Positions 20,535 through 64,000 are shown, counted from the first letter of the stretch. The stretch: 64,000 nt of DNA from Atractiella rhizophila (GCA_021432655.1 MU271279.1:1-64000); one strand, 5' to 3'. Numbers and translations are program-made. Notes: generated from the letters alone by a model not told the origin.

Positions 20535-20559
20535 NNNNNNNNNNNNNNNNNNNNNNNNN
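20535..20559. other. Assembly gap (25 N)
   Basis: Run of 25 n in the sequence. Confidence 1.
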
Positions 20560-25489: not shown

Positions 25490-25668
25490 GGCTCTATTCC
25501 ACCTGCTTTCCTCAAAGATATTCTCGCGCGCAACAGAAATTTGGGTTTTGTGTCGTCTTTCTGGGTACTTCAGCTCATTGTGTCACAACAATTAAATAGA
25601 CTCATGAAGCGATTGAGTTGTGGGAAACCGTGTTTGTAGAATCGTAGTGGTGTGCAGATACGGGACAA

Positions 25669-37585: not shown

Positions 37586-37942
37586 TCTCCATTCTCTGTT
37601 TCTACCCCAGCTCTTTCTCCACCCGGCAATTGGCCACGGAATGAACGACATGCCCTCCTTCGATTCAGATTCACACTCAGTACCTCTCCCTTTCTTTCTG
37701 CTGAGATCTCTTGCGTGTAGACTAACTATTAATACCTTCATGGGGAGGAGACGCCAGAGCAGAAGAAGAATGCTTGCGGCTGTTAATCTCTATTCTCTCT
37801 GTTTCTACCCCACCTCTTTCTCCACCTGGCAATTGGCCACGGAATGGACGACATGCCCTCCTTCGATTCAGATTCACACTCAGTACCTCTCCCTTTCTTT
37901 CTGCTGAGATCTCTTGCGTGTAGACTAACTATTAATACCTTC
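37540..37942. repeat. About 201-bp direct tandem repeat (2 copies) covering the Rab5 C-terminus and 3' UTR
   Basis: tggggaggagacgccagagc...attaataccttc at 37540-37739 and again at 37741-37942, with a few substitutions and a 2-nt indel. Confidence 0.95.
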
Positions 37943-40404: not shown

Positions 40405-40487
40405 CTCTCAACTTCTATCAAGTGGTCCAGACACACAAACTCAACAACGAACCCGTCTTTATATTTTATATTGATTTCTGTACAAAT

Positions 40488-41847
40488 ATGCAATGGCCCA
40501 TATCCTTCGCACGATCAGAAGACGCAATCCCTCAGCCGGGTCCACGATCTGCGTCTCAATATTCCTCCACGAGCATGACACTATTAACCGAGACTGGGCG
40601 CCAACTAACGCGACCAAGCCACATCGAGTGGATGAATGATCGCTACAACGGGAAGAGGTGTATTTTTACACAATGGATTGCTGGCGTGCACTGGTGCCAC
40701 GTATTGGAGGCGAGAGATGTCATATCGGCGCGTTGTCTGGTCCAAGGCGGGAACGGTTATTGTATTGAATAGCAATTTGGGATGGACAGGGTAGCGCGTT
40801 GAGCAGGCTCAACTTGGTGTCAGCGGATTTCCTAAGAGAAGGATATCTGAACCTGTTCCCTTCGCTACTCAAGTACCACTTTGACAATGGCATGTTGGGC
40901 TTTCTGCCCAATATCGAAGTTTTACAATTCCTGGTTCTTATTGAGGAAGGACATCGGCGATTTCGCGAGGATTCCATCTCGAGGGGGCATCCAGATCCTG
41001 GCAGAATGCCCTATTCGTCATTTTACGGAACATTCGAAGGCTCTGGCACATATTACGACGTATATTTCAAGAGGCGCATAGTCGACTTTGAGCGTGTCTT
41101 TAGAGTCCTCGATCGCAAGCTTTGTTATACCGACTCCGGAGCACCCATAGGCGACGATGCCTTCCCTCAACTCAAGTTATATCTTGCTTTAACAGTCGTA
41201 ATCTGGATTCAAGCAGAACGTCTGAACAGGACGTTCAGTAGTGCCACGGCCGACCCATTTGTTGGTTTTTCTTTTTATGCAGCTGGAAACTGAGTGCGTA
41301 TTTAGTTCAACGTGTCACTAGCCATTTATCTGAAGGATTTATGGATGGCTCCGCTGATGGGCGCCTGTTGAACTCCCAGCGACCAACCTCTCTTCCGCCT
41401 CAAGGAGTCTGGCCATATACTACAACTGCACCAGACTTGACTTTATTCACAGGATCCACAGGAGCCACAGCAACAAATCCCCATCCTCCCAATCCTCCAG
41501 GCTCATCCCAATTTTCTGTTCCGATTTGGACTTTGCCTGAATTTGATTTCCAAGAACTGCCCGCAGAGGAACGATACGTGGGAATGACGACGGAAGAAGC
41601 TGTGTCGCGTGAGCTTGCGAGGAGGGGAATGACAACGACAGTACCTTCTGGAAACTTAATCCATGCGTGGCAAATGAAGACAGAATGTTTATCGCCGGTG
41701 AAAAATGTATGGTACCGACTTTCTCACCAGACTCGTGACTTATCAAGACCGTTTCTTTGCAAGCATTTACACCCTACAATTAATGTCGGATTACAACTTC
41801 CTCACAACATTGCGGGAAGGTATAGATATACGAAACAGCCTGTATGA
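40488..41847 (+). CDS. Hypothetical protein with degenerate HNH_2-like nuclease motifs, copy 1
   Basis: RYNGKRCIFTQWIAGVHWCHVL followed by NLFPSLLKYHFDNGMLGFLP resembles the C..T....H / N..L....H..FD.G...F.P pattern of fungal HNH_2 proteins. The exon structure is uncertain. Confidence 0.4.
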
Positions 41848-41849
41848 TG

Positions 41850-44300: not shown

Positions 44301-45087
44301 ACCCCGGTTGAGGTCATGGAGAAATTAGGAGAGATGAGGAGGGAGTACGACGAAGAGTTGGAACTTCAAGTGGAAACTACCGAGGTTTGAAGATCTGGAT
44401 AGACAACTTAGGCTCCATGAAGAACCGTCACGACTCTTACTCGACTCAACCCAGTAATTTCCACCCTCGACGAAAAGATCTCTCTTACGGTTATCCTGGA
44501 GCAGCATCTACCAACCTTTGAATCCTCCTGGTTCTCCGACACGAATGGACGAAGCAAGAAGCAAGAAATCCTTGGACCACCGATCAACGAATACGCTTAC
44601 AGTTAACGAAACGGACGATTTCCTTACGGAGAAGACATCGCAGAGTGGTTCAGGAGCGAGTAAAGCAGACCCGTAGGAACACACCGCTCAGGGAGGCGAT
44701 GGAACGCAACCTCACACCTGTAGGACGAATTTAGACGGAAAAGTGAAAATGGAAGAGCCATCCATTGGGAAGAACAATGAAGAAGAGGAGCTCATTGAGA
44801 TGAGGTAGATTACGGAAGAGCAACGACTAGCATTGCACTGAAAACGGCAACTCTCAGTCCTCATATGGAATACCTCCTAGAACTATCCATATCGTACGTC
44901 TCTTCCTCCCACATATACGCCGAAATCTGCTCGAGCGTACAAACGGGACTCTCAGAAAGCCGAAAGCAACAGCATACGGACCCCTCCTGAACTTTCTCTC
45001 CGTTAGGCACCGGCAGGAACCGAAACGTATCTCAACCGTGAAGCATCCTAATTCGAAGTACTTCGAGGAGAAAAACCTCCAACATGA

Positions 45088-46128
45088 TTAGAATCCGCAG
45101 GAACCTTCAATGTCAGCTCAGGATATCCCCAAGACCACATTTTCCCGGCCTACCCACACGTCCTCCTGAATACTCGACTCCGCATGGCAAGCCCTTGCCC
45201 TAGACACATGAATCCCTCCAAAGTCATCTACACCTCCAAACCACGACTACGAGATCCCAAAGCTTCCCAATGATCCCTTCCTCACCCCAGAGCACAAGTA
45301 CATCCGTCTTCATCTTCTTTCCCTCCCTCTCATCCGCCTCGTCAAGTTCCAAATCTATGCTCGCGCTCGCTCGATAGTCTTCACAGATCGCGTGGACGGC
45401 GCCAGGCAGACTGTTTGTGCGGTGATATTCTTGTTCGAGCTGGGAACGGATTGGCGTGGGAGGACGGAGAGCAGCTTGCTTTTCGAGCTGGGATTGGAGG
45501 TATTCTCGTTGGTTCGCTTCAATCATTCTGTTCACAAAATCGCATCAAAAGCCTGGTAAGCTTGGAGCTTCATACCTTTCAGGCCACGGATAAGGTTGGA
45601 TGAGAAAGAACCACCATATATATTTTGTCGCAAATTCCTTATAGTCTTTAGGGGAGCGATACATGGTCAACGTAGGGGCGATATCCAGCAGAACGACCTT
45701 CTCGACTCTATCAGGGAAATCCACTGCGAGTCGATGTGCCACCCTCGAGCCTCGATCATGACTGACTATCGTGAATCGTTTGAAACCAAAGTTGTCCATG
45801 ACCTTTACCGAATCGTTTGCCATCTCTCTCTTCGTGTACAGTCTGTGCTCTGTATCGCCCTCATCGAAAGGCTTGGAGGAGTCTCCGTATCCCCTCAAGT
45901 CGTGAAGCACGACGGTATATCCAGCTTTCTCAAGAACAGGAGCGATGGACGTGCCATGTTGAGAGTGTTTGCGGGTTCCCATGTATCAAGAGGACGGGAG
46001 GACCGGTGCGGGAGGGTGAGATGGCGTTGTGGATGTGGATTGGAGGGAAGTAGAAGTTTGGATGTGTGAACGCCAAAGGTGTACGTAGGGTAGAGAGACT
46101 TTGCGAGTTCACTCGTTGTGAGCGACAT
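45088..46128 (-). CDS. Haloacetate dehalogenase-like hydrolase, copy 1 (frameshifted, 3' end garbled)
   Basis: Near-identical to 53965-54969 over 45255-46128; 45088-45255 is a corrupted version of the 3' end. Confidence 0.7.
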
Positions 46129-46939
46129 GGTTTCTTCAGAAAGACAAAGACAATGTCAAGATCAAAGTTTGATGAGGAAGCAGCAGCACTAAACATCCAA
46201 CTCTGCCATGCTTTTATAGTTTTCGGACGAATCTGTTTCGTCAGCTGTTCCATGCAAGTATTTATTAACTTGTATTAACTGTCGCAAGAGCTCAATCGTT
46301 TAAAGCTGTCAGCACAAGTTAAGGTAACGCTGGCGGTTGTGCGTAAGACCGAATAGTCCGAGGCGTGGTAGCATCAACCTCATTTCGATACTCGACTCGA
46401 GCGCTCCAAAATGTGAAGCAGAAATCTGCTATCATGCAGGAAACATCGTTGAAATTTGATGAATATGACAACAGCATGAAAACAGACTCTAGCCCAGTAA
46501 CCAAACTGACTACCCACCAATCAAATGCTACTTAGATCTTGCAACAGTCACAGAACCCATCAGAGGAACAACTCACGACAGAACACTCACAAATACTATC
46601 CCACGTACTCCCACGCAGTCAGCCAGTGACCCTCCTCCAGCCACCAAACGCGCCCGTACGTCCGAGCCGCAGCAATAGCAATCTGACGAAGCACGAAGAC
46701 AACACTAATTAGGTCACGTCTAAAGCTCCAAATCGAGAGAATATAAAGCTCTCCCCCCTCTAGACACCGATTTCATACATTCACCAGAAGAGAGTCAACA
46801 ATACTGCTGAACGAAGATGCCAAGGTCAACACAACACTATTCTGCCAGCTGCTCCTCAACCGAACCCTTTCGCAAAAAGAGTTCGGACGTGGAATGCGCA
46901 ACAAAGAGAAAGGAGAAGACAAATGTACAAGAAATGCAA

Positions 46940-48235
46940 CAAACATGCATACGACAAGTTCGAGCTGCTGAAGAAAAGATGGTACAAAGACATTCTGAAA
47001 GCCCGGATTTCGAACTTCGCTTGCATACTGCGCACGGTGTCAGCCACACCACAGTGTCAGAAAGTAGATGCTTACTTCTCTCTCAACGCACATATCTCCT
47101 CCTGAAGGACCCACATGAACGCAGTGCACATCTGGTCTAAGTGTGCAATTATGTCAGCTGCCTCCTCTTCTTATAGTTTAATACAAATGATACCTCGTGA
47201 GAACCATTGCTCGATGGATATATCGACAGAATGTAGTATCTTGACCCAATGCCCAAGGATCTCCCAGCTCTTTTTCAGTCATGAGAAAATTCACACATCC
47301 GTCAAAGTCGTCGTACTGCTTGTTGCTCCCCAAACAGTATGCCATTGCCCTACTGGACATTCAACCACGCTATCTGAACGGGCTGTGGAGTACGCACACT
47401 TCGCACGTATCCACGGCTGCTCTCATCTTGATCAGGTTGCTGCTGGACAAGATTTGCTCTCCTTTCCTAAAACGTCCAGCAGTCATACTAACTGTCCGAT
47501 CCCCATTGTCGCCTTCCTCAACAGAATAGCCCAATTCGTTTGCGATAGGCTTTAGAAGGTAGGGAAAAGCCTCCTGCACGGACCAAGCATAACGACGGAA
47601 GGTGAAATCGTAAGCTGTCATTTTCGTAGGGTTTGAAGGGTCGTATTTAAGCCATGCATCGATTTGGATGGGCTGGTAAGGCATTCCGTCCACGCCATAG
47701 TCATATTCTGCTATCAGGGACCAGGAGACAATGGATTCCGTCAATGTGAGAGCGCTGAAAATCTGTCAGTATTCATCAACTGCATCTGAACTAGAGGGGT
47801 ACATGATTTTCGTGTCTCGAGCGACAGGAACAAGACGGGTAGTGTTGATTGATCCTTGGTACCCGAAAACACCTGAAAAAAAATGTTTAACCCAAACCGC
47901 AGAAACTGTGAAGCAACTCGTACCAAAGATGTACTCAGTGTTCAGCTCTGCGCCGTCATACTCATTGGTCACATCCACTCTCCCAACAACGTCGTCAGAA
48001 AAGCCTTCCCAGACACCAGCATTTGCAATCGGCGCTGGATTTAGGTAAGCCTCCCCCAGTCTATGAACATTCGCCTTTCCAGACACTCAGCGAAAGGACT
48101 GGATGGATGGAAGAAGACTTGCAAGTAGCACGGCTGGGTTGATTGATTGGCTGGTTGCTATCGCAGGACGAGCATAACCAGAGGGAGCGAGGAGAAAGAG
48201 AGCCCATAAAGGAGGAGAGTAGTGAGAGGCGCCAT
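46940..48235 (-). CDS. Secreted Cys-rich hypothetical protein, copy 1 (1-nt indel near 48203, 3' end garbled)
   Basis: Near-identical to 55682-56975. Confidence 0.65.
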
Positions 48236-48696
48236 TGACGGAGCTTGAGCTCAAAGGGCTGTCGAGGGAAAATTCTCTCCATTCCCATTCGCTTTAAGCG
48301 CTTTCATGAGACTCTGTCGAGGTACATGTACACAAGCTTCAAACATTAGTCAAACAAGGCGAGCAAGAATTGCGGCGGAGAATGGACAAGAATGGACGCG
48401 AAAATCACTAAAAGGTATTGGAAACTGCTTATCTGAATTCTGAGGTAAATCAAAATCAAGTCCTAGCCTAATTTTCTACTCTGCTAGGGCTACTGGCAGT
48501 GTTAATTCCCTTTATTGGCCAGGTTATTATCGGAACTCTGCGCAATCTACAAGCCGCAACAGATACAGCCGGCATGTTTGGCATCCGAAAATCTCCAACG
48601 AGTCTTGGAAAACATGTCGCCCATCACTTCCTACTTACTAAAATCGCGTCACTACCTTATCAGCCACACGCAGTGGCGGACATCACATCCAACGCT

Positions 48697-48721
48697 NNNN
48701 NNNNNNNNNNNNNNNNNNNNN
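48697..48721. other. Assembly gap (25 N)
   Basis: Run of 25 n in the sequence. Confidence 1.
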
Positions 48722-49665
48722 CCCATTCTCAACACAGTACCCTCCTCATCAGGCAACACAACTTCCAATCCTAACACATTCCCGTGCAATGATCCATAGC
48801 GGAGGAGACGTAGCCCGCCGGCATTCGTGGAGATGTTACCACCAATTTGACACCTGAAGCGGAGAGAGTTTAGAGCTGGAGCGTGAGAAGAGGGAAGACT
48901 GACGAGCCCTTCGCGCCTAGATCGAGGCTGAATTCTTACGTGAGGAATATAATGAAGAGGAGAAGAGGGCGACGCACGGGAAGATGTAGCCTTTGGCTGC
49001 TAGGTAGTCGTCTACATTCTGCAGCACACACCCAGCATCGAGCGTAATCACGCCTGTTTGTCTTCCCTCAGGCTAACTCTTCTGCACCAAAGGAGGCCGT
49101 ACCAGATACCTCATCGAATGATCGGATGGTGTTCATCCCGCTCAGATTGAGGACTAGCTCGTCATGCACTGGCACACTGCCGCCTACCAAGCCAGTGTTC
49201 CCGCCTTGCGGTACTCTGTTTACCACATCATCATCAGAGAAGCAAGAAAGGAGAAGGACACAAACACGGCAATGTTTTGTTTGTAGCAATACGCAAGCAG
49301 CTTTGAGACTTCCTCTGTTCTCTTAGGGCGGACAACAGCAACTGAGTCCAACAATCACCTTCCCTTCCTCATAAATCCATCAAAAACAACACACCGCTTC
49401 TCCCCTTGTACTTCCCCATCCAATCCTCATTATATCCACCCAGTTCTACTTCTTCCACTTCCTTCCAACCAGCCTCATCGACTGCTGCAGGTTTTAGAGA
49501 CGTGATCACATTTGAGTCTGGATTCGAGATCACGCTTCGGAAGAATGTTATGTCTCCCGCGTCGAGGGTCTTATACTGCTTCTTGCGCGGTGGAACTGTT
49601 GAGTTCCAGCGTTTTGAAGCTCTGGAAAGCTGCAAAAGTTGCTGAGGCAGTCGAAATGGTCGCAT
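48722..49665 (-). CDS. DLD2: DLD2 5' part, second copy, truncated by the gap
   Basis: Essentially identical to 39461-40404. Confidence 0.85.
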
Positions 49666-49741
49666 CTCTCAACTTTTATCGTCTGTCCAGACAAACTCAA
49701 CAACGACCGCCTTTATATTTTATATTTATTTCTGTACAAAT

Positions 49742-51140
49742 ATGCAATGGCCCAATATCCTTCGCACGATCAGAAGACGCAATCCCTCAGCCGGGTCCAC
49801 GATCTGCGTCTCAATCCTCCTCCACGAGCCTGACACTATTAACCGAGACTGGGCGCCAACTAACGCGACGAAGCCACATCGAGTGGATGAATGATCGCTA
49901 CAACGGGAAGAGGTGTATTTTTACACAATGGATTGCTGGCGTGCACTGGTGCCACGTATTGGAGGCGAGAGATGTCATATCGGTGCCTTGTCTGGTCCAA
50001 GGCGGCAAGGCGGGAACGGTTATCATATTGAATAGCAATTTGGGATGGACAGAGTAGCGCGTTGAGCAGGCTCAACTTGGTGTCAGCGGATTTCCAAAGA
50101 GAAGGATGTCTGAACCTGTTCCCTTCGCTACTCAAGTACCACTTTGACAATGGCATGTTGGGCTTTCTGCCCAATATCGAAGTTTTACAATTCCTGGTTC
50201 TTGTTGAGGAAGGACATCGGCGATTTCGTGAGGATTCCATCTGGAGGGGGCATCCAGATCCTGGCAGAATGCCCTATTCGTCATTTTACGGAAAATTCGA
50301 AGGCTCTGGCACATATTACGACGTATATTTCGAAGAGGCGCATAGTCGACTTTGAGCGTGTCTTTAAAGTCCTCGACCGCAAGCTTTGTTATACCGCCTC
50401 CGGAGCACCCATAGCGACGATACCTTTCCTCAACTCAAGTTATATATTGCTTTAACAGTCGTAATCTGGATTCGAGCAGAAAGTCTGAACAGGACGTTCA
50501 GTAGTGCCACGGCCAACCCATTTGTTGGTTTTGTTTTTATGCAGCTGGAAACTGAGTGCGTATTTAGGTCAACGTGTCACTAGCCATTTATCTGAAGGAT
50601 TTATGGATGTGTCCGCTAAGTAGGCGCCTGTTGGACTCCCAGCGACCAACCTCTTTTCCGCCTCAAGGAGTCTGGCCATATGCTACAATGGCACCAGACT
50701 TGACTTTATTCACAGGATTCACAGGAGCCACAGCAACAAATCCTCATCCTCCCAATCCTCCAGGGTCGTCCCACACCCAATTTCCTGTTCCCATTTTAGA
50801 CTTTGCCTGAATTTGATTTCCAAGAAATGCCAGCAAAGGAAGAATATGTGGGAATGACGACAGAAGAAGCTGTGTCGCGTGAGCTTGCGAGGAGGGGAAT
50901 GATGACGACAGTAACTTCTGAAGAAACTTAATCCAAGCGTGGCAAATGAAGACAGAATGTTTATCGTGGGTCGAAAAATGTATGGGTGTAGACTTTCGCA
51001 CTAGACTCGTGAACACGTTTTATCAAAACCGTTTCTTCGGGATTTACAGGGCTTTTAAAGCGTATACATGGACGATTTATGTCGGATTACAACTTCCATT
51101 GTGGGAAGATATAACGTTACGAACCAGCCTGTATGTATGA
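49742..51140 (+). pseudogene. HNH-like hypothetical gene, copy 2, frameshifted
   Basis: Homologous to 40488-41847 with several indels and many non-synonymous changes. Confidence 0.4.
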
Positions 51141-51558
51141 AAACCAAAAAACATAATGCACAAAATACATGTGTCTATCTATTTACGATCACTTGGACAT
51201 CGATAGCCTCCCCCTTCACTTTAACCCCCGTTGTTACTCGTAGCACGAATAAAGTCGCCTGTCCAAACGCACTCCTCCTATCCTCCGTGACCACTCCCCT
51301 GTCCTGAAAGCCACTGCACATCACTAGGTGAGCTGGTGAACGACATTCCCACTTGCGCCGGGATTGATCGCAAAGGGCGAGGTGGATGCAGGGAGTGGAG
51401 ATGGTGCCATGCCCTCTGTAAGGGGAGGTGTCCATGGAGAGGCGATCGTGGACAGTTGTGCGTAGTCTTGAACCAGCCGGACTTCAAGAAAGTAACGACG
51501 ACTTTGGGAATTGCTTGGGCTTTGGTCAGGATTTGCTGGCGTAGATTGGGACATCAGA

Positions 51559-53766
51559 ATGAAGCCTTCTCTTCCTGAGAAAGATTTGGGTCCCCAGATC
51601 AGCGTAGCAGCGGGAATATCTGTTTCGCTTGTCGCCTCCCTTTTCCAATCGTTAGGTGCAGGTCTCCTCTTCCCCATTGTCTGATCTCATCGGTATACAG
51701 GCCTCACTATCCAGCGGAAATCCCATCTGCAAAATGAGGCACTACCTTCCTCCAAACGCCGTAGCGATTGGAAGCGACCGTAAGTTATATCCTCGCTTTA
51801 TTGGGTACGCGTTATGAGAGGCTGCTGGCTGAGCACGCCTTGTCTGAAGGTTGTGGCTCGTGGGCTTCGGCGTGTTCATTGTCTCCAACATTCTCTCGAC
51901 TGTCTTTCAGCTCTCCGCATTACCAATTGTCATCCTCGCCCCTTTAGGAGCTGTATGTCGACTCCTGCTCTTTTCGGCTCTTTAGTGTGTTTTTAATTGG
52001 AAGAACAGGTTTCTCTCATTTACAATGCCTTCTGTGCTCGTCTTATACTAGGAGACGTCTTCTCCCGCTACCTAGCAATTGGAACACTTTTTGTTGCTGG
52101 TGGAGGTGCGCAGTTTTGCTTTTCTCTCTAGTAGTGCGAGAGTTCTGACGTGTTAATGGGTGGAAAGCTGTCATGGTCGCGCTCTTCGGCGTCGTCCCTG
52201 AGCCGTCTCACACTCTCCCACAGCTAATAGCACTCTACACACGCCCTGCCTTCCTTGCCTGGATCAGCGTGTTTTCCTTCCTCGTCATCTGTCTCCTTCT
52301 CATTGTTAGTTTCTCCTCTTCTTTCCCACCATACTCCCCCGTTAGTTGACTGCTCGGATGCATGGATCGTAGAGCCACGTATCAGAATACTCGCTACGGA
52401 GACAAATGATAGACTTAGAAGCCAGCCTCCTGTCCTCCGATCCAACCTCACAGGCGATACACAAACAGCTCCTTCTTCGGCGGAGCCAAGGACGTGTCCC
52501 CATACAACGACCACTTCGTTTTCATAAACGATATCACTCTCTAGACTCGTCCCGCATCCTTCCTCCACTTCTTCGGCGGAGCCAAGGACGTGTCCCCATA
52601 CAACGACCACTTCGTTTTCATAAACGATATCACTCTCTAGACTCGTCCCGCATCCTTCCTCCCCTCCCGCTTCCCACTTCTCGAACAAATATCGTTAGAA
52701 GTGCAGGCGGGCAGGTGGAAGGGGAGGAAGCTAAAGTAGAGGCGATGGATAGGAAGAAGGTGGAAAGGTTGCAATTTCTCGTAGGTGCAGGATACGGGGC
52801 GAGCAGTGGATGCTTGAGTGGGCTATGCTTGTTATTCGCCAAAACGGGTACTGTCACTCCTTCATTATTTTCCATCACACGCTGACTTTCGTACCCATGA
52901 AAGGCACGGAGCTCCTAATTCAATCTATCGCTGGACCACAGAATCATTTCAAGCATCCCGAGCCTTGGGCAATAGTCATCGTACTCCTACTTGCAGCAAT
53001 CGCGCAGCTGTTCTACCTCAATCGTGCTCTCACGTTCGGAGGACCGACTTTTGTGTGCCCACTCGCATTCATGTTTTATAACTTGTCGTCAATCATCTCT
53101 GGCCTGTTCTATTACGACGAATGGCGCCTCCTCTCTCCATCCCACATCGCCTTGGTCTTCACAGGAACTATCGTCCTTCTCCTTGGGGTATGGATCGTTT
53201 CCCTCCAGGACAGTGATCCGAAGCGAACGACTAGCCAACCCGTAGTACCCACAGAACAAACCGCATTGTTGCCAGCGCGTGGCCCTAGAGCCGGACACGA
53301 TGATGAGGAAGAAAGTGACGACAGCTCATCGGACAGCGAAGATGAGGAAGGAGAACGCAGGTCCTCACTCCTCAACTCCTACCGAGGCTTTGCAATCGGA
53401 ATTTCAGCTTCTTCTCCGGGATTCTCCATCCGTCCCTCTCTCCCTCGTCCCAATCGACAGACGAAAAGATCTGTCACTTATTCTGGAGCAGACAGCGCAC
53501 ATCATCCTTATCCTTCTGGTTCTCCGCCACGCATGGACGGAGAGGAAGCAACCATCCTTGGACCACCGCTTGAACGCACAGTTAGCGAGACGGACTCGGA
53601 ACTCGCAAGGGGAGAGCGAGAGAGGAGACGGGTGGGAAGACACCGCTCGTTGGCTGGGGACCCTTATGTAGGCTTTAGACGAGCAAGTGGAGATGGGAGA
53701 GCTATGATTGGGGGGAGAATGAGAAGGAGCTCATTGAGAGAGGTAGATACGGAAGAGGAACGATAG
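51559..53766 (+). CDS. NIPA / DUF803 family (DMT superfamily) putative Mg2+ transporter
   Basis: ASLFQSLGLTIQRKSH, LPIVILAPLGAVSLIYNA, YGASSGCLSGLCLLFAKTG, QLFYLNRAL and PLAFMFYNLSSIISGLFYYDE, followed by a long acidic/Arg-rich C-tail. Confidence 0.88.
52472..52662 (+). repeat. 96-bp in-frame tandem duplication inside the NIPA CDS
   Basis: cttcttcggcggagccaagg...catccttcctcc starts at 52472 and again at 52568, giving LLRRSQGRVPIQRPLRFHKRYHSLDSSRILPP twice. Confidence 0.95.
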
Positions 53767-53964
53767 CATTGCACATGAAAACGGCAATTGTCAGTTCATT
53801 GTAAATCGGTTCATGCATTCGTTCGTTTTTTCATCTGTGGCAAGTGCTTTCGTTTACATAACTCTTGAAGTGAATGTAACATTATACCCCTTCCTTATTC
53901 TCCTAGGCTCGCAGCCTAATTGTACAACCGTTACATCCTAACGACCCAACCTGCTCCAACATGA

Positions 53965-54969
53965 TTAGAATCCCAGGAACCTCTTCAGCTCGTCTATCAG
54001 TCTTTCCGGCTCCAGCTCCTGAATACTGTGTCCGCATGGCAAGCCCTTGCCCTCGACCTTGAATCCCTCCGAAGTCTTCTCCCTCCAAACCTGGACAGGA
54101 TCCCAAAGCTTCCCAATGATCCCTTCCTCACCCCAGAGCACAAGTACATCCGTCTTCATCTTCTTTCCCTCCCTCTCATCCGCCTCGTCAAGTTCCAAAT
54201 CTATGCTCGCGCTCGCTCGATAGTCTTCACAGATCGCGTGGACGGCGCCAGGCAGACTGTTTGTGCGGTGATATTCTTGTTCGAGCTGGGAACGGATTGG
54301 CGTCGGAGGACGGAGAGCAGCTTGCTTTTCGAGCTGGGATTGGAGGTACTCTCGTTGGTTCGCTTCAATCATTCTGTTCACAAAATCGCATCAAAAGCCT
54401 GGTAAGCTTGGAACTTCATACCTTTCAGGCCACGGATAAGGTTGGATGAGAAAGAACCACCATATATATTTTGTCGCAAACTCCTTATAGTCTTTAGGGG
54501 AGCGATACATGGTCAACGTAGGGGCGATATCCAACAGAACGACCTTCTCGACTCTATCAGGGAAATCCACTGCGAGTCGATGTGCCACCCTCGAGCCTCG
54601 ATCATGACTGACTATCGTGAATCGTTTGAAACCAAAGTTGGCCATAACCTTTACCGAATCGTTTGCCATCTCTCTCTTCGTGTACAGTCTGTGCTCTGTA
54701 TCGCCCTCATCGAAAGGCTTGGAGGAGTCTCCGTATCCCCTCAAGTCGTGAAGCACGACGGTATATCCAGCTTTCTCAAGAACAGGAGCGATGGCGTGCC
54801 ATGTTGAGAGTGTTTGCGGGTTCCCATGTATCAAGAGGACGGGAGGACCAGTGCGGGAGGGTGAGATGGCGGTGTGGATGTGGATTGGAGGAGAAGTAGA
54901 AGTTTGGATCTGTGAGAAGGTGTACGTAGGGTAGAGAGACTTTGCGAGTTCACTCGTTGTGAGCGACAT
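53965..54969 (-). CDS. Fluoroacetate/haloacetate dehalogenase-like alpha/beta hydrolase (318 aa, one intron 54374-54421)
   Basis: LLIHGNPQT, DLRGYGDSSKP, YTKREMAND, SHDRGSRVAHRLAVD, LLDIAP, YIWWFFLIQP, ICEDYRA, VLVLWG and CGH. Confidence 0.88.
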
Positions 54970-55681
54970 GGTTTCTTCAGAAAGACAAAGACAATGTCAA
55001 GATCAAAGTTTGATGAGGAAGCAGCAGCACTAAACATCCAACTCTGCCTGCTTTTATAGTTTTCGGACGAATCTGTTTCGTCAACTGTTCCATGCAAGTA
55101 TTTATTAACTTGTATTAACTGTCGCAAGAGCTCAATCGTTTAAAGCTGTCAGCACAAGTTAAGGTAACGCTGGCGGTTGTGCGTAAGACCGAATAGTCCG
55201 AGGCGTGGTAGCATCAACCTCATTTCGATACTCGACTCGAGCGCTCCAAAATGTGAAGCGAGAAATCTGCTATCATGCAGGAAACATCTTTGAAATTTGG
55301 TGAATATGACAACAGCATGAAACAGACTCGAGCCCAGTAGGCAAAGTGAGTACCCACCACTTGATGCGACTTAGATCTTGCAACAGTCAAGGCCTTTGTG
55401 TGGAATATCTGTGAGAGAACACTCTCAAATGGTTGTACTACAGTCAGCGAGTGATCCAGGTCAAAGTCCCTTTGTTTGAGCCGCAGCAATAACAATCTGA
55501 CTAAGCACAAGTGAACCTAATTATGTGAGCTCTTCCAAGTGGTGAGCATTTTCTTTGTTTCTTTTCATGGATAGAGTCAAGAATACTGCTGAAAAGATGC
55601 CAAGGTGCCAATAATGGGCTCCCGAACTCGCAAAAATATTTCCTGTCTACAAAGAGAAACGGTCCACTGTAAAGTCATGCT

Positions 55682-56975
55682 TCAATCCTGTAACACAAGT
55701 TCGGGCTGCTGAAGAAAAGATGGTACAAAGACATTCTGAAAGCCTGGATTTCGAACTTCGCTTGCATACTGCGCACGGTGTCAGCCACACCACAGTGTCA
55801 GAAAGTAGATGCTTACTTCTCTCTCAACGCACATATCTCCTCCTGAAGGACCCACATGAACGCAGTGCACATCTGGTCTAAGTGTGCAATATGTCAGCTG
55901 CCTCCTCTTCTTATAGTTTAATACAAATGATACCTCGTGAGAACCATTGCTCGATGGATATATCGACAGAATGTAGTATCTTGACCCAATGCCCAAGGAT
56001 CTCCCAGCTCTCTTTCAGTCATGAGAAAATTCACACATCCGTCAAAGTCGTCGTACTGCTTGTTGCTCCCCAAACAGTATGCCATTGCCCTACTGGACAT
56101 TCAACCACGCTATCTGAACGGGCTGTGGAGTACGCACACTTCGCACGTATCCACGGCTGCTCTCATCTTGATCAGGTTGCTGCTGGACAAGATTTGCTCT
56201 CCTTTCCTAAAACGTCCAGCGGTCATACTAACTGTCCGATCCCCATTGTCGCCTTCCTCAACAGAATAGCCCAATTCGTTTGCGATAGGCTTTAGAAGGT
56301 AGGGAAAAGCCTCCTGCACGGACCAAGCATAACGACGGAAGGTGAAATCGTAAGCTGTCATTTTCGTAGGGTTTGAAGGGTCGTATTTAAGCCATGCATC
56401 GATTTGGATGGGCTGGTAAGGCATTCCGTCCACGCCATAGTCATATTCTGCTATCAGGGACCAGGAGACAATGGATTCCGTCAATGTGAGAGCGCTGAAA
56501 ATCTGTCAGTATTCATCAACTGCATCTGAACTAGAGGGGTACATGATTTTCGTGTCTCGAGCGACAGGAACAAGACGGGTAGTGTTGATTGATCCTTGGT
56601 ACCCGAAAACACCTGAAAAAAATGTTTAACCCAAACCGCAGAAACTGTGAAGCAACTCGTACCAAAGATGTACTCAGTGTTCAACTCTGCGCCGTCATAC
56701 TCATTGGTCACATCCACTCTCCCAACAACGTCGTCAGAAAAGCCTTCCCAGACACCAGCATTTGCAATCGGCGCTGGATTTAGGTAAGCCTCCCCTAGTC
56801 TATGAACATTCGCCTTTCCAGACACTCAGCGAAAGGACTGGATGGATGGAAGAAGACTTGCAAGCAGCACGGCTGGGTTGATTGATTGGCTGGTTGCTAT
56901 CGCAGGACGAGCACAACCAGAGGGAGCGAGGAGAAAGAGAGTGCCATAAAGGAGGAGAGTAGTGAGAGGCGCCAT
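55682..56975 (-). CDS. Secreted fungal hypothetical protein (signal peptide, SnoaL/NTF2-like segment, Cys/His-rich C-terminal domain)
   Basis: Signal-like start MAPLTTLLLYGTLFLLAPSGCA; FSDDVVGRVDVTNEYDGAELNTEYIFG; PIQIDAWLKY; YCLGSNKQYDDFDGCVNFL...CRYIHRAM...HCVHVGPSGGDMC. The fold call is an inference. Confidence 0.7.
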
Positions 56976-58363
56976 TGACGGAGCTTGAGCTCAAAGGGCT
57001 GTCGAGGGAAAATTCTCTCCATTCCCATTCGCTTTAAGCGCTTTCATGAGACTCTGTCGAGGTACATGTACACAAGCTCAAACATTAGTCAAACAAGGCG
57101 AGCAAGAATTGCGGCGGAGAATGGACAAGAATGGACGCGAAAATCACTAAAAGGTATTGGAAACTGCTTATCTGAATTCTGAGGTAAATCAAAATCAAGT
57201 CCTAGCCTAATTTTCTACTCTGCTAGGGCTACTGGCAGTGTTAATTCCCTTTATTGGCCAGGTTATTATCGGAACTCTGCGCAATCTACAAGCCGCAACA
57301 GATACAACCGGCATGTTTGGCATCCGAAAATCTCCAACGAGTCTTGGAAAACATGTCGCCCATCACTTCCTACTTACTAAAATCGCGTCACTACCTTATC
57401 AGCCACACGCAGTGGCGGACATCACATCCAACGCTATTCAAGCGAGGAGCTAAGGTCCGCTGTCGGATAGCTGTATTTGGACGAACGCTGTCGTGCGCCT
57501 GAAGACAACACGAGGCTCCAAAGGAGTGACAGACTAAGAAATGAGGTCACTATTACCTTTTCCTGGTTAGGCCTACAGCTCGAGCGCGAACCAAGCTAAA
57601 GAGTACTTGGATCTTAAAACAACGAGTCCCTTCGAAATATGGGACTTTAATTCACCTAATCACATCGTGAAGCGGATTTTTAAACGTTGAAATGTTCAGA
57701 ACTCGCCTACATAAATAAAAGATACTTGCTGACTACTCCTGTGGTTGAAAATGACACGGAGATGCACGTCTTCCCACATAAACATCTCTTGGGAGGATAG
57801 GGCCATCGAATTTTATGCTCTTGCTTGTAGCTTAGGTAACAGGCATGCTCATACTTGAATCGATTCAAAAGTTCAGCCCTTCCCCTTTCCTCAAAGTCTT
57901 GTCACCGTCACATTGTCTACCCTTTCGATAAGCGAGTAAGCATCTACTCAATACCTTCTCAGCGAGGTGCACATGCAGCTTGGCGAGCGTGATTCACAAA
58001 GTAACTGCACCGCTGTTCTGTTTGAAGGACAGGATGAACTGAAAGAGAAGCTGCAACACGCGCGATCGCGCGCTCATGTGCGCTCCTGAAAGACACATCA
58101 CGAATATTAGAACTGACGGTTTGTGCAAGCTGAGGATGGCAACTTTGCTTTATACTATAGAGCGATGTGTGGGTTGTTGCACTTTGTAGTCGAAATAGAG
58201 GATGAAAGAAATGAATAACTAACTATTGTTTTGTTCGACTACAAAGCGCAAGACCCCGCTGAAAAAGGGCAGAAGCGCTCACCCTAACCAACGAGGATTT
58301 GGATAGTACGCTCTATAGACTGGGAGGAAGCAAGGGGACGGGTGGGTGGGACTTAAAAAGAGA

Positions 58364-58879
58364 ACGCGTATGAAGACTGCTTGCGAGTGAGGAGCAGCAG
58401 ACCTGAGCGTGAGGCGATGGTCGACTTTGCTTGCAAGCAAAGTAAGCGCCTCACGTGCACAAACGCAACTTTCGCTTCTTCGTGCCTCATTTTCGAAACT
58501 TCACTAACTGACGGTCTATGATTTGAGATGATCGAATTTACATAGTGCTAGTGAAAGGTGAGCTGATTTGACTTTTCAAAGTTCCTTTTCAATTGGGTCC
58601 TCTGGGCAAACCCAGCCTCGGACTGGGTAGAAGTACAATACTACTTGCGTCTCCCGAATAAGAGGACTCTATCAGTAAACGCATACGCGTAATGTTGAGG
58701 GATTTGAATGCCATAAAAGAATTCTTTAATTCTTTCAAGCAGATCAAGCTTCAGGCTAAAATTATTGAGGCATAAGGACGGCGTCTGACTTTCTCCCAGC
58801 CTCTTTCCCAAATTCTAATACGTACATTTTCCCAGCAGTGAAAAATATATCTTTTCTCTTTCGGCTGCATCAGACGCGT
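58364..58879 (+). promoter_or_regulatory. Three ACGCGT (MluI/MCB-like) boxes upstream of the Ura1-like gene
   Basis: ACGCGTA at 58364, 58685 and 58874. Confidence 0.4.
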
Positions 58880-58901
58880 AACAGGTCTCTAAAGTGCTCA
58901 A

Positions 58902-59918
58902 ATGGCGCTTCCGCTTCTAAATTCCTCCAGCCCATGGGCCACCACCCAATCTGATCTGCGAGGGCTATATGAATCCGAATACACGAGCGCAGTGACTACT
59001 CGCACGAGTCTTCTCCACGGCTTTGCCCACGATGATAACGTGCACAAGATGTGTTTCTTCGCTGCAGGTTCGCATTCCGTTCCTTCCACCACGAAGGAAA
59101 CGTTGGGAACCGATTCGAGCCTGAACACTTACGGTTATTCGCCGTTCCCTCTGGCGGATTACCTTCAGATGATCTCTACTCTGTATGCTGAACACGATGA
59201 GAAGACACCTGGAAAGAGAAAGAAACCGTTCATTGTTTCCGTCACTGGTGTTCCTTCGGAGATTGTGTCGTGTTACGGTCTCATCGTCGATCTCGCAAAG
59301 GGAGTTCAAACTGTGGAAGAGGAAGAGAAGGGAACACTACTATCGATGGAAATCAACCTTTCCTGTCCCAACATTGCAAACAAGCCTCCACCAGCATACG
59401 ACTCCTCTTCACTGTCCGAGTATCTCATTGCTCTCAAACCAGTCTTTGAACCTCTCGTCAAAATAGGGGTCAAAGTCCCACCATATACGTACATGGCTCA
59501 ATTCCAAATGCTCCTTTCTGCACTCGAAGCCTCCGCTCCAGGAGGACCAATCGCCTTCATTACATCCACGAACACTCTCGGATCGTCTATCGTCTTCACG
59601 CCATCTATTACATCTTCCTCCAGTAAATCTCTATCTCCAGCTCTGCCCTCGGAAGACGGTAGCGGAATAGGAGGTATGGCAGGCTCAGCCCTTCACCCAC
59701 TAGCGTTGGGAAATGTGTATCGTATCCGCCAGTTATTGGATGGGAGCAAGGAGGAAGAGGTGAGGAGGATCGAGATTGTTGGTGTAGGAGGTGTGGGGGA
59801 TAGGGAGGGGTATGAGAGGATGAGGGCGGCTGGTGCGAACAGGGTTGCCCTGGCTACGGCGCTTGGGAGGGAGGGCGTGGGAGTCTTTGAGAAGATTACG
59901 AAGGGAAAGGAGTTGTAG
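58902..59918 (+). CDS. Class 1A dihydroorotate-dehydrogenase-like FMN enzyme, probably dihydrouracil oxidase; intronless
   Basis: LLNSSSPWATT, AVTTRTS, SLNTYGYSP, KPFIVSVTG, EINLSCPNI, VKVPPY, TSTNTLG, GGMAGSALHPLALGNV and IVGVGGV. Confidence 0.88.
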   Translation: MALPLLNSSSPWATTQSDLRGLYESEYTSAVTTRTSLLHGFAHDDNVHKMCFFAAGSHSVPSTTKETLGTDSSLNTYGYSPFPLADYLQMISTLYAEHDEKTPGKRKKPFIVSVTGVPSEIVSCYGLIVDLAKGVQTVEEEEKGTLLSMEINLSCPNIANKPPPAYDSSSLSEYLIALKPVFEPLVKIGVKVPPYTYMAQFQMLLSALEASAPGGPIAFITSTNTLGSSIVFTPSITSSSSKSLSPALPSEDGSGIGGMAGSALHPLALGNVYRIRQLLDGSKEEEVRRIEIVGVGGVGDREGYERMRAAGANRVALATALGREGVGVFEKITKGKEL

Positions 59919-60173
59919 AGCTGGAAGACTCAACTTGAAGGGTCGTGGCTATATTGATATAAGGGAATTTTCTTGCGAAGAATGCACTTATGTTCCGGTT
60001 AAAAATGTGTCAGGTGTACAACTTGGTATTCTCATTCAAATTTATTGATGTATCATAACAAATGGACAATCTCAGCCTTGATCGACGTGAATATAATCGG
60101 ACAATAACAGCACAAAAGGTCCTTCATTCACCAACACTTCTTAATTCGGAACAACACAAGTCTTGACCAATTC

Positions 60174-61169
60174 TCAAATATCGAAATCATCCCACTTCTT
60201 CTTCTCCCCACTCTCAATCTGCCTACTCATCCTCAGCACCGAATTCGGCAGAAAAACATCTTCAGGTTTAGGGAACGCAATTTCCTTCGGTACGAACGCT
60301 TCTTCTTCCGGTATGAACTGTTCATCGTCTTTTCTTCCAGGATGGGTGGGAGGGAAGTAGACGGGGATCAAGGTCTTGTACACCTCGTAGTCCCGGAGAG
60401 GGAAACAGACGAAGACGATGTTCTTGACTAGTTCTTGTTTCGGATGATTTTCCAAGAAGGAACGGACGGTGCGGAGCGCTATGTGCGTTGCTTTTCCGAG
60501 TGGAAAGCCGTATATTCCGGTGGAGATTCCACAGAAGGCCTGTATCCATCATTCCTCCCCATTAACACTCCAGAATCCAAATTGAAGGGGAGAGAAAATG
60601 GACGTACGATACTCTCCACTCCTTCCTCAGTCTTCCCAGCATTCTCATTGATCTCAATAGCCCTCTCCAAACAAGCAGTATAACAATCCTCCAAATCCTC
60701 CTCCGCCTCCTGCGGGTCCTCATACTCGTTGTAAATCGGTCCAGCGGTATGAATCACAAACTGAGCGGGCAGATTGAATCCCGGGGCAATCTTCGCGTCT
60801 CCCGTCTCGCACCCTCCCAACGTCTTGTTGAAAGCCAACAAGCGGGGTCCGGCCGCTTTGTGGATCGCGCCGTCGATGCCTCCACCACCTTGGAGAGAGT
60901 TGTTCGCCGCGTTTACCACCGCTGTCGCCGCGAGACGGGTCATGTCCCCTCGCCTGTCATCATTCGATCATCAGTCCTCAACTTTCGTACTTGTACTCTT
61001 TGCCCGATTGAAGAGTTTTGGAGGATGAGACGTACCATAGGAAGACACGACGGTTGATGGACATGTTGTGGTCGAACTCGAGCTCGTGGCGAGGAGGGAT
61101 GGGGAACATTTTCTCCACATAGTGATTGTGCACTGAATATTTGCTTTCGATGGGAATTGGTGAAGGCAT
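60174..61169 (-). CDS. MacroD-type macrodomain protein (ADP-ribosylhydrolase / O-acetyl-ADP-ribose deacetylase-like)
   Basis: GDMT...VVNAANNSLQGGGGIDGAIHKAAG, CETGDAKI...LPAQFVIHTAGP and, after splicing, AFCGISTGIYGFP. Confidence 0.9.
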
Positions 61170-61391
61170 CTTCTATATTACTTCGATTTCGCGTTTAGAG
61201 AGATGTGAAAGTGGCTTGGGCGGTTCAGTTGGAGGCAGTCGTCGTTTGGTCGTTACGTCCCTTTTGAGCAAGGGATCTCACGAATAAAATGGGACAGACA
61301 ACATTATGACGTAGTAACGAAGCCCCTTGGGACAGAAGAGCTGGCCCCTTAGCAATTTCTTCCAAGCCAAACTTGCCAGAAAGAGAGAACG

Positions 61392-61943
61392 ATGCGTCCC
61401 TCATTCCCCTTCGCGCGTCTCTGCAACTTCCTTCCACGGCATCTCCGAAGATTCCAGAGTACAAGCGCAGCGACAACAGCGAGCAAGAATGTGCCGCTCG
61501 AGCTTCCGCCTCTCCAAGACCCACTGCTCGCCTACCTCGTCAACCTGACCATGCGACACGGGAAGAAGACCTTGTACCAGAACCAAATCGCGCTCATGCT
61601 GCGCACCATCCTCCTCACCACCTCCTCACCTCCCTTACCCCTCCTCCGTCGAGCATTGCAGATGGCCGCGCCGTCCGTGGGCATTTTCACCATCAAGAGG
61701 AACATGAGGAAGTTTGAGGTACCGCAGCCGATGACGGAGAAGAGGAGGGTGAGGGAGGCGTGGATGTGGATCGTGGAGGAGAGCGAGAAGAGGTTGGAGA
61801 AGGAGTTGGGGAGGAGGTTGGCGGCTGAGGTGTTGAATGTGTTGGAGGGGAAGAGCGCAGTGTTGGGCAAGACGATGGAGAGACATAAGGTCGCGGTTGC
61901 TAATAGGGTCAACGTTGGAAAAAGCTTTGCTCATAGACGTTAG
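61392..61943 (+). CDS. RSM7: Mitochondrial ribosomal protein uS7m
   Basis: Presequence, then LVNLTMRHGKK, A...AAP, VPQPMTEKRRVREAWMWIVE and RHKVAVANR. Confidence 0.88.
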   Translation: MRPSFPFARLCNFLPRHLRRFQSTSAATTASKNVPLELPPLQDPLLAYLVNLTMRHGKKTLYQNQIALMLRTILLTTSSPPLPLLRRALQMAAPSVGIFTIKRNMRKFEVPQPMTEKRRVREAWMWIVEESEKRLEKELGRRLAAEVLNVLEGKSAVLGKTMERHKVAVANRVNVGKSFAHRR

Positions 61944-62240
61944 GTACGCCGTTTCCTTTCATTCAGTTCGTGTTGTGGGACCAGAAGTTAACAATTCACC
62001 AGCAGCTGCTTTAGGGCCAGCACTTCGACTTTCTAGCTTTCTCTATTATACCTGCACCTATATCTACGTCCAAAATGTCCATAGCTTCCATCCTTCTTCA
62101 CCGCACATGTTTGCCGGACAAAGACTATGAAGACTAATCGTGACAATGGGGGTCAAGCAGGAAACAAGACACGGAATCACATGAGACTAACATCCAGTGC
62201 TAAGTGAAAGATGTACACTCCCAACGAATCACATCTTACA

Positions 62241-63270
62241 TCACTCCTTCTTCCTCTTCTCCTCCACCTTAGCACCTTCACCCCCACTCCCACTTCCATA
62301 ATAAATGACCTCTCCAAGTATAACCGCATTCAGCGCCGCCGCTGCAACGAAAGACCACCAAATGATCCTATCACCCGTCTCCTGCGCGGTCGTGAAGACT
62401 CTAGCCAAACAACCGACGAGGGAATTGACGACGAGCCACGTGCTAAGTTGTCCCGCAGAGCGTTGTTGATAGATCGTACTGATCTGTGGGAGCTTCGAAG
62501 AGAGCGAGAGAGGGATGGTGAAACCTAGTCCTGCGCGGAGGAGGGAGGGAGGGAGGAGGTGCAGTGTGAAGAGGGTGGGGAGGACGAGGAGGTAGGTTAG
62601 GAGTGGGAGGGGACGGGAAGAGGGGGGAGTGTAGAGGAGGAGGAGGTAGAGGATTATCGCGTTCTGGTTTGAGTTGAGAAGTTAAGATGGGATTTGAGAG
62701 CGAGAGAGTAAAGAACGCTTACTTGGAGTAGGAGGAAGAAGGATTCTCCATATGACACGAACGGGTGAGAGGAGGCGAGGTTGTACCCCACTGTGATGGC
62801 AAGAGACGCCGTGTCTAGCGCGTCTGTGATACTTGCCACGTCAAAACAGTCTGTCAGCCATAGTAAGGAGAGAAGGCACACAAGAGCTAAATGAGAGTCC
62901 CTTCGTGCTCCTACTCTTCAATATGTTCAAAATCTGAGGGACCTTGACTTTGAACGCAACGGGTCATAGAATCAGTAAATAAGTGTTGGGAAGTGGAGGA
63001 TGAGAAGCGCACCAATCGACCCTCCAGCAATGATTCCCACTCCTAACACCTTGCTAACAGCATGCTTCAGGCACTCTGGCTCTGGATTCACGTCCAAAAT
63101 AAGCGTTTTATAGCATTGGGGGCCGATTAGTGCTTCCCCAAGTTGCGGGATGGGGTAGGGGAGGGAGGAGGTCAGTTTCTGGCATAGAAAAAGGGTCAGT
63201 CCGTGCCTTTCGTCTGAATATAACTCACCTGGAGAAAGTTGAGGGACTCGGAGGTCGTAGGAGGGGCCAT
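62241..63270 (-). CDS. MPDU1: Mannose-P-dolichol utilization defect 1 (PQ-loop) protein
   Basis: Spliced CLKHAVSKVLGVGIIAGGSIVKVPQI, PFVSYGESFFLLLQN and SKLPQI...GQLS...GCLARVFTT.QETGD; ends in KRKKE (KxKxx ER-retrieval-like). Confidence 0.9.
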
Positions 63271-63337
63271 TGTTGTTTCAAGTGAAGATGTTCCCTTGTG
63301 TTGGTGGCGGCGTGCGCTTCCGCAACCCGCGCAGGTG

Positions 63338-63371
63338 GACGCGCGATAGCGCGCAAGATCGCGTCGCGTAA
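63338..63371. promoter_or_regulatory. CGCG-rich MCB-like cluster in the MPDU1/thymidylate kinase bidirectional promoter
   Basis: gacgcgcgatagcgcgcaagatcgcgtcgcgtaa within a 180-bp divergent intergenic region. Confidence 0.45.
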
Positions 63372-63450
63372 CAGCATAAGTGGGTACACTGATCAACTGC
63401 TAGACAAACCACAGCTTCGTGCTTTGTATCACTAAGAAATAGTAAGAGCG

Positions 63451-64000
63451 ATGCGTGGAAGGTTCATTGTCTTTGAGGGTTTAGATCGGTCTGGAAAGTC
63501 AAGCCAGTCTGAGCTGCTCAAAGCCAGACTGGAAGAGGAGGATAAAACTGTCCAATTGCTCAAATTTCCAGGTGTGATTTCTTCACGAGATCGGTGATAA
63601 TCAGTTTATTATACACAAATATCTACAGATATTTTTGGCCACCTCTTTTTGGAGAATGAGTTTACTATCGTCCCTCAGTGATAAGATGTTTTCGTGGCTT
63701 TGCTTTCGGTTTCCGTTCTTATGTATAGCCTCATCCGTATCTGAAACAGTTCAAAGTACTAAATCACATCTTCTTTTGATTGCTAGTGCTTATACTCGAG
63801 TATATCGAAGTTCTAGGCGTAGATTTTCACTTTAGGCTGATTGTCATGGACAGCGAAATTGTGCTCACACCATCATTGACGTAGATCGTACCACTCCAAT
63901 CGGAACTCTCATCAACTCCTACCTCCTCTCCAAGTCTAACTTATCAGATGAATCCATACATCTCCTCTTCTCTGCAAATCGATGGGAGAAAGCGTGAGCT
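63451..64000 (+). CDS. CDC8: Thymidylate (dTMP) kinase, 5' part; runs off the window
   Basis: [19 protein letters not shown]...[17 protein letters not shown]...[11 protein letters not shown]; intron 63572-63885. Confidence 0.95.

Follow-up and report, generated by a model that had tools for sequence, protein, structure and literature searches.

We analysed the first 64,000 nucleotides (nt) of scaffold MU271279.1 of Atractiella rhizophila (GCA_021432655.1; this whole stretch is called the window), a basidiomycete of the Pucciniomycotina, class Atractiellomycetes. The subject is a gene on its minus strand that encodes an alpha/beta hydrolase related to bacterial fluoroacetate dehalogenases (FAcDs). 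The original prediction, made from the DNA sequence, described a 318-residue alpha/beta hydrolase gene with one intron, and both exons, the 48-nt intron and the product were recovered (Table 1). The spliced product agrees at every letter with the 318-residue NCBI protein P0001, named 'haloacetate dehalogenase [Atractiella rhizophila]', and the exon junction is crossed without a gap in alignments of P0001 to the PDB entries 9C9F, 3QYJ and 4NVR. Exon 1 carries the nucleophile D123 (codon 54601-54603), the arginine clamp R124/R127, the triad acid D147 and a pair of adjacent tryptophans (WW), and exon 2 carries Y234, within the motif EDYRA, and the catalytic base H298 (codon 54028-54030). In the public run X21, one contig joins position 54373 to 54422 and thereby skips exactly 48 nt. 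A contig of run X20 is continuous through the intron, as expected of genomic DNA. Runs X1 and X22 do not span the intron, and runs X1-X19 contain only small shares of the window. At the WW codons, no variant is listed in the covering contigs of runs X20, X21 and X1.

Table 1. Positions of the gene, its parts and the related features (handles beginning with L denote loci)
Feature	Position	Strand	Remarks
Exon 1	54422-54969	minus	ATG at 54967-54969; residues 1-182 and 2 bases of codon 183
Spliceosomal intron, 48 nt, GT..AG	54374-54421	minus	in-frame TGA; frame kept; GC 41.7%
Exon 2	53965-54373	minus	residues 183-318 and stop codon 53965-53967
TGG TGG codons (W170, W171)	54457-54462	minus	W170 stands where RPA1163 has the halide-pocket histidine His155
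Second, haplotig-like gene copy	~45179-46128	minus	WW kept (TGGTGG); looks like a pseudogene
Run of 25 N between repeated blocks	48697-48721		separates 39461-48696 from 48722-57435
Bacterial hydrolase loci surveyed for partner genes	L001-L080; L081 2934-6884; L082 3912-5882		gene context

The reading frames that flank the gene encode a NIPA-type magnesium transporter, which is spread over several reading frames, as well as a dihydroorotate dehydrogenase, a Macro-domain protein, ribosomal protein S5/S7 and a PQ-loop protein. The coding sequence (CDS) of the hydrolase has a GC content of 51.8% and a GC content at third codon positions (GC3) of 58.6%, both inside the range of neighbouring host exons; in 80 bacterial genes of the WW type described below the medians are 65% and 79%, respectively. 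Bacterial contamination or mis-assembly might be suspected, because the nearest relatives of the protein are bacterial and the surrounding assembly contains N gaps and duplicated blocks. However, the intron is spliceosomal and holds an in-frame stop, a spliced contig exists, the GC content is host-like, eukaryotic genes lie on both sides in the same contig, the gene is present in two diverged copies, and its product is only about 50% identical to any bacterial protein. Contamination was rejected, above all on the intron and the flanking eukaryotic genes, and we regard its probability as negligible. Thus, the intron, the spliced contig, the eukaryotic neighbours and the host-like GC and GC3 indicate integration and not contamination: the hydrolase gene is intact, spliced and chromosomally integrated in A. 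rhizophila.

The Pfam family Abhydrolase_1 (PF00561) matches the protein encoded by exon 1 with an E value of 8e-24, and no NCBIfam model scored above its cut-off for the same protein. An AlphaFold2 model built from an alignment of 23 sequences has a mean predicted local distance difference test score (pLDDT) of 86.3 and a predicted template modelling score (pTM) of 0.89. Foldseek searches with this predicted model gave template modelling (TM) scores of 0.86/0.93 to the FAcD 9C9F, 0.85/0.89 to the Salmonella entry 4NVR and 0.85/0.88 to the FAcD RPA1163 (3R3U), with a root-mean-square deviation of 2.0 A in the last case. The superposition on RPA1163 had been proposed along with the original prediction, and it agrees with the expected fold. 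FAcDs and 4NVR are the closest solved relatives. Taken together, the Pfam match, the AlphaFold2 model and the Foldseek results reveal an alpha/beta-hydrolase fold with a cap domain, as in FAcDs, and the 318-residue protein is assigned to the FAcD-like family of alpha/beta hydrolases.

According to PMC13262264 and bioRxiv 10.64898/2026.10.11.758284, the FAcD active site consists of D110, R111, R114, D134, H155, W156, Y219 and H280, and the pocket histidine H155 stabilizes the halide as one of three fluoride-stabilizing residues. The introduction of PMC13262264 states that efficiency is tuned, and halide selectivity shifted, by mutations of H155, W156 and Y219. The Atractiella protein keeps seven of the eight positions (D123, R124, R127, D147, W171, Y234 and H298). 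The nucleophile D123 and D147 are 24 residues apart, which equals the D110-D134 spacing of FAcD, and W171 and Y234 are 63 residues apart, which equals the W156-Y219 spacing. D123 aligns with D107 of Daro3835, the carrier of the glycolyl intermediate in 8SDD, and H298 aligns with H274 of Daro3835, the mutated base (Asn in 8SDD H274N), as described in the PDB titles. The eighth position, that of the halide-stabilizing histidine, is occupied by Trp170: YIWWFFLIQP of the Atractiella protein aligns with YWHWFFLIQP of 9C9F, YYHWFFLIQP of 3QYJ and YFHWFFLIQ of 8SDC. The motifs HDRGSR, LDIAP, EDYRA and CGH had been reported as kept and the usual His-Trp pair (HW) as reading WW; all of these, and IWWFF, are present. 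Since one defining residue of FAcDs is replaced, we call the protein an FAcD-like hydrolase of the WW subfamily and not a fluoroacetate dehalogenase. Two further sources were set aside: bioRxiv 10.64898/2026.09.12.751135 concerns the histidine in front of the nucleophile instead of the pocket histidine, and PMC13230308 deals with an enzyme that has a serine nucleophile.

The WW pair had been taken as a change that arose in Atractiella. This was not upheld, as WW is invariant in a bacterial subfamily that includes a solved structure. With exon 1 as the query, 116 of the 119 best non-self matches carry WW and three carry HW. With the full-length protein, WW is found in 82 of 119, including all of the top 14. 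Bacteria were scanned, with one genome per species, for the patterns WWFFLIQ and HA[IV]CEDYR; at least 601 stretches matched, and 571 of the 601 pattern-matching stretches listed encode relatives. The counts of bacterial loci given here and below refer to the best 80 of these at least 601 stretches. Of these 80 loci, 75 encode WW and 52 belong to Alphaproteobacteria; Beta- and Gammaproteobacteria, Acidobacteriota, Bacteroidota and one Rokubacteria genome are also represented. In a curated alignment, tryptophan stands in the column of W170 in 29 of 29 WW-clade rows, and histidine in 92% of the other non-fungal rows. The solved structure 4NVR itself reads YFWWFFLIQP. Among the representatives of clusters at 50% identity, HW is usual, and WW occurs only in P0001, P0121, P0151 and a few fragments. 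On these sequence comparisons, the Atractiella protein is a member of a large WW subfamily that is otherwise bacterial among the sequences examined, with PDB 4NVR as its type structure. One of the loci is titled Mycobacterium sp. KBS0706 (L002), and its WW-type protein groups with those of Inquilinus with a near-identical branch length; the organism name is possibly wrong.

4NVR, a structural-genomics entry from Salmonella enterica named 'putative acyltransferase', is like the Atractiella protein in its WWFFLIQP motif, its D/R/R/D/W/Y/H set and its fold. It is 44% identical to the Atractiella protein and is the best PDB match for exon 1 (E 1.5e-48). It differs in being bacterial and intronless, whereas the Atractiella protein is longer by about 30 residues at its N terminus and sits on a much longer branch. 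Our literature search found no paper that mentions 4NVR and no published function for it. The FAcDs RPA1163 (3R3U), Burkholderia FA1 (1Y37), Delftia D4B (9C9F), Daro3835 (8SDC) and Nostoc Alr0039 (3QYJ) are 33-46% identical to the Atractiella protein, with query-normalized TM scores of 0.84-0.86. The characterized FAcDs have in common with it the alpha/beta fold, the Asp-His-Asp triad, the Arg-Arg carboxylate clamp and the tryptophan and tyrosine of the halide cradle, but 9C9F, 3QYJ and 8SDC carry histidine where it has Trp170. PA2086 of Pseudomonas aeruginosa (4B9A, 'putative epoxide hydrolase', crystallized with monofluoroacetate) has the same fold and a non-canonical FAcD-like active site, at 36% identity. 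Its PDB titles list T131D and Q244E, and these titles suggest that PA2086 departs from FAcDs in its triad acid rather than in its pocket histidine.

FAcD homologues are not unusual in fungi, contrary to what had been supposed, because a broad HW-type clade exists in ascomycetes. A search with P0124, a representative of this clade, returned a dense fungal set from Fusarium, Diaporthe, Trichoderma, Metarhizium, Fonsecaea, Lepraria and others; we take the six named genera to be ascomycetes. HW is present in 119 of the 120 listed proteins of this set. The family includes FGSG_03173 of Fusarium graminearum, a protein of Fusarium torulosum named 'related to haloacetate dehalogenase H-1' and a 'Fluoroacetate dehalogenase' of Hyphodiscus hymeniophilus. 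Unlike the Atractiella protein, these ascomycete proteins are of the HW type and form a separate clade beside HW bacteria of the Burkholderiales. It was observed that this clade groups with Cupriavidus, Massilia, Telluria and Noviherbaspirillum and with P0122 and P0140/P0141, with support of 94-95 in the Shimodaira-Hasegawa-like approximate likelihood ratio test (SH-aLRT). These ascomycete proteins may in turn go back to another, earlier exchange with bacteria.

The Atractiella protein had been predicted to be horizontally acquired from bacteria, and this part of the prediction stood in its placement and not in its statistical test. P0001 represents its own cluster at 50% identity, and its cluster at 90% has three members. 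Its best relative among the 50% cluster representatives is P0121, which is of the WW type and 50% identical; the best non-self identity over the full length is 50-53%. All organism-named matches among the best 120 of the exon 1 and full-length searches are bacterial (Methylobacterium, Telmatospirillum, Roseibium, Bradyrhizobium, Cupriavidus, Massilia and others), and no fungal orthologue was found among them. No basidiomycete orthologue was found among the matches in protein sets of 5.8 billion and 1.84 billion sequences. Few Atractiellomycetes genomes exist. In a FastTree tree of 137 rows, the Atractiella protein takes a basal position, with a long branch, in a set of 42 rows with support of 96; this set comprises all WW-clade rows and two HW rows (P0137 and P0266). 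In a quick IQ-TREE analysis of 85 rows under LG+C20, the protein lies inside a WW clade of 31 rows (SH-aLRT 87), and the ascomycete clade is apart from it with support of 99. A careful IQ-TREE analysis of 62 rows, in which the neighbouring HW group of Burkholderiales was included, joined 17 WW bacteria and the Atractiella protein with an ultrafast bootstrap (UFBoot) of 99 and an SH-aLRT of 99, so that nesting among bacterial homologues, which had been proposed as a check, was found. The same 18-row clade persists when the W170 column is dropped (SH-aLRT 89). A broad, vertically inherited fungal clade with WW was not found in the searches made. On these trees and matches, the gene most likely came from bacteria, although this is not proven.

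This gene could instead be an old fungal gene that was inherited vertically, a relative of the ascomycete FAcD-like clade in which WW arose by convergence, without any transfer into the Atractiella lineage. Approximately unbiased (AU) tests, in which the Atractiella protein was joined with the ascomycete clade, did not reject fungal monophyly, either with 85 rows (log-likelihood difference 17.6, p 0.209) or with 62 rows (31.3, p 0.105), and the transfer is therefore not statistically secured. Several other observations weigh against the favoured account of the gene. The terminal branch of the Atractiella protein measures 0.89-1.57 changes per site, compared with mostly 0.1-0.8 for bacterial WW members; long-branch artefacts are therefore possible, and the placement is less sure. 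It has only four of the nine WW-specific residues (T153, W170, Q200 and K282) and lacks the other five, and it has two of the ten ascomycete-specific residues (P27 and V134). The nearest feature cluster in the ESM Atlas is 94% eukaryotic and mostly from Ascomycota. With the full-length query, 37 of the 119 best non-self matches are HW-type bacteria, and the HW-type 9C9F and 3QYJ score 272 and 263 bits, slightly above the 261 bits of the WW-type 4NVR. However, vertical descent would have to accommodate the maximum-likelihood trees, which put the protein in the WW clade with or without the W170 column, and constrained trees that are worse by 17.6-31.3 log-likelihood units. The protein is 42% identical to P0124, the sole representative of the ascomycete clade measured, versus 50-53% to WW bacteria, and it carries T153, Q200 and K282 besides W170. 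Together with the lack of basidiomycete orthologues among the matches in the two large protein sets, these points make vertical descent, in our judgement, unlikely.

A bacterial origin would most probably mean an old bacterium-to-fungus transfer into the Atractiella lineage; the transfer would be old because the gene has an intron and its product is only about 50% identical to that of any bacterium. After the transfer, the gene would have gained the 48-nt intron, acquired the base composition of its host and evolved fast. The WW pocket would have come along with the gene from the bacterial subfamily.

The window contains a second copy of the gene (Table 1). It had been argued that both allele copies have WW and that a sequencing error was therefore improbable. 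The codons TGGTGG are indeed found in both, so WW is not a sequencing error, but the second copy is not an intact gene. It has indels of +5, -1 and +1 within the first 175 nt of the CDS and five further insertions within its last 130 nt. In the frame of the intact copy (copy A) it contains two stop codons, and it reads GTC at the position of the His codon of copy A. Over the first 870 nt of the CDS the two copies show 11 non-synonymous and 8 synonymous differences. The second copy is decaying. The blocks on either side of the N run in Table 1 repeat each other, their four main pieces being 95.5-99.2% identical; two short repeat pieces just downstream of the gene show identities of only 79-82%. 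Another pair of blocks was observed at 12087-20532 and 20560-30085, with main pieces 93-99% identical and 25 N at 20535-20559 between them. The block pairs are probably two haplotypes set in tandem by the assembler, and gene counts in the scaffold are thus possibly inflated. At the 3' end of the gene (53861-54003), run X20 holds two variant contigs with near-equal depths of 122 and 125, a pattern that fits a sequenced strain with two alleles. Apart from these blocks, two head-to-tail duplications were seen, one of 95 nt with 100% identity just upstream of the NIPA-like gene (52472-52566 and 52568-52662) and one of about 200 nt with 97% identity (37540-37739 and 37741-37942).

The broken second copy raises the question whether the gene is heading for loss, that is, whether it is a transferred hydrolase under relaxed constraint that has no present role. 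The second copy is frameshifted and lacks the His codon, non-synonymous differences between the copies outnumber synonymous ones, and the terminal branch of the Atractiella protein is 2-6 times as long as the branches that the same tree gives to most WW members from bacteria. On the other hand, the frame of copy A is open and all seven conserved active-site residues are kept, the intron sits where it should and is spliced out in one contig, and the codon composition has been brought to that of the host, a slow process that requires retention. We consider decay of the gene as a whole quite improbable.

The bacterial relatives offer a view of possible function. All open reading frames in the flanks of the bacterial loci were clustered and then scanned with Pfam and NCBIfam. 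In 42 of the 80 loci, a LeuCD-like pair or a tartrate-dehydrogenase-like gene lies at most 4 kb from the hydrolase gene. These partner genes mostly adjoin the hydrolase gene in the same direction, and the two partner types never occur together. A pair of LeuC-like and LeuD-like genes was found in 19 loci, usually with a divergent LysR regulator, and 23 loci have a gene of the isocitrate/isopropylmalate-dehydrogenase family whose score exceeds the cut-off of TIGR02089 'tartrate dehydrogenase'. In RefSeq, a megaplasmid of Pantoea dispersa carries the order leuC-leuD-alpha/beta hydrolase-LysR, in which the start of the hydrolase gene overlaps the end of leuD, and a plasmid of Ruegeria conchae carries the hydrolase gene directly after tartrate dehydrogenase. 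Furthermore, in P0415, a 504-residue protein from a metagenome/ENA source, a LeuD-type small subunit (residues 1-202) is fused to a WW-type hydrolase; this fusion gives a Rosetta-stone hint that LeuD and the hydrolase may act together. Our literature search found no paper linking WW hydrolase genes with LeuCD or tartrate-dehydrogenase partners, and none combining 'fluoroacetate dehalogenase' with 'tartrate dehydrogenase'. The presence of these partners in 42 of the 80 loci argues against a dedicated fluoroacetate role. From the gene context it appears more likely that the WW subfamily makes or handles a hydroxy-dicarboxylate than that it detoxifies fluoroacetate.

The conserved residues and the FAcD mechanism suggest how such an enzyme might work. 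Arg124 and Arg127 would bind a small alpha-substituted acid by its carboxylate, and Asp123 would attack C-alpha, giving an ester intermediate. Trp170, Trp171 and Tyr234 would hold the leaving group, and water activated by the His298-Asp147 pair would release a 2-hydroxy acid. If the substrate were a dicarboxylate, an epoxy- or halo-succinate-like compound, for example, would be opened to a tartrate- or malate-like product, and the Trp-Trp-Tyr pocket would hold an oxygen or a large leaving group and not fluoride. It is possible, though doubtful as yet, that WW proteins are no dehalogenases at all but an enzyme class of their own, which acts with LeuCD- or tartrate-dehydrogenase-type partners on substituted C4-C6 dicarboxylates and that Atractiella captured one such enzyme from a bacterium and has retained it as a stand-alone gene.

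The same residues might also belong, as the original prediction had it, to a true fluoroacetate or haloacetate dehalogenase in which the change from His to Trp has altered the preferred halide, perhaps in favour of chloro- or bromo-acids. The Trp N-H is able to hydrogen-bond a halide, as in haloalkane dehalogenases. Only one of the eight positions of the FAcD active site is changed, the fold agrees, and the mutational shifts in halide selectivity described in the introduction of PMC13262264 also fit this possibility. However, the histidine that is missing is one of the three fluoride-stabilizing residues, and the bacterial subfamily in which WW is invariant has LeuCD-like or tartrate-dehydrogenase-like operon partners, not haloacid genes. 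We regard a dehalogenase of this kind as rather unlikely.

In our view, the most satisfactory account, which we hold to be moderately probable as a whole, is that this is a resident FAcD-like gene of the WW subfamily, derived from an old bacterial transfer, for which a hydroxy-dicarboxylate role would be likelier than fluoroacetate detoxification. Besides the phylogenetic points given above, four others count against it. The kind of run X21 is unrecorded, so that its spliced contig probably derives from RNA, although this is not certain. The broken second copy and the long branch could reflect weak constraint. Neither a LeuCD-like nor a tartrate-dehydrogenase-like gene was found next to the fungal gene in the part of the window from 48722 to 64000. 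In a eukaryote, such an operon arrangement would not be expected to persist. Finally, our literature search found no assay of any WW-subfamily enzyme, a point that also tells against a dehalogenase with altered halide preference.

As for the organism, the finding adds one more probable bacterial gene to a root endophyte fungus. Transferred alpha/beta hydrolases are one of the three commonest transferred classes in fungi, as reported in PMC11708051, which makes the Atractiella case an ordinary one; Atractiella is not mentioned in the main text of that paper. As for the family, the WW subfamily takes in many of the proteins that carry the name 'haloacetate dehalogenase' or 'fluoroacetate dehalogenase' in genomes and metagenomes; it is without one of the three fluoride-binding residues and is found in operons with hydroxy-dicarboxylate enzymes. 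In searches for natural defluorinases for organofluorine clean-up, WW proteins should thus be set apart as a group of their own. The WW subfamily is already structurally sampled by 4NVR, and its pairing of hydrolase and partner genes is conserved and uncharacterized. This linkage with LeuCD and tartrate dehydrogenase provides a concrete lead to the substrate of the WW subfamily.

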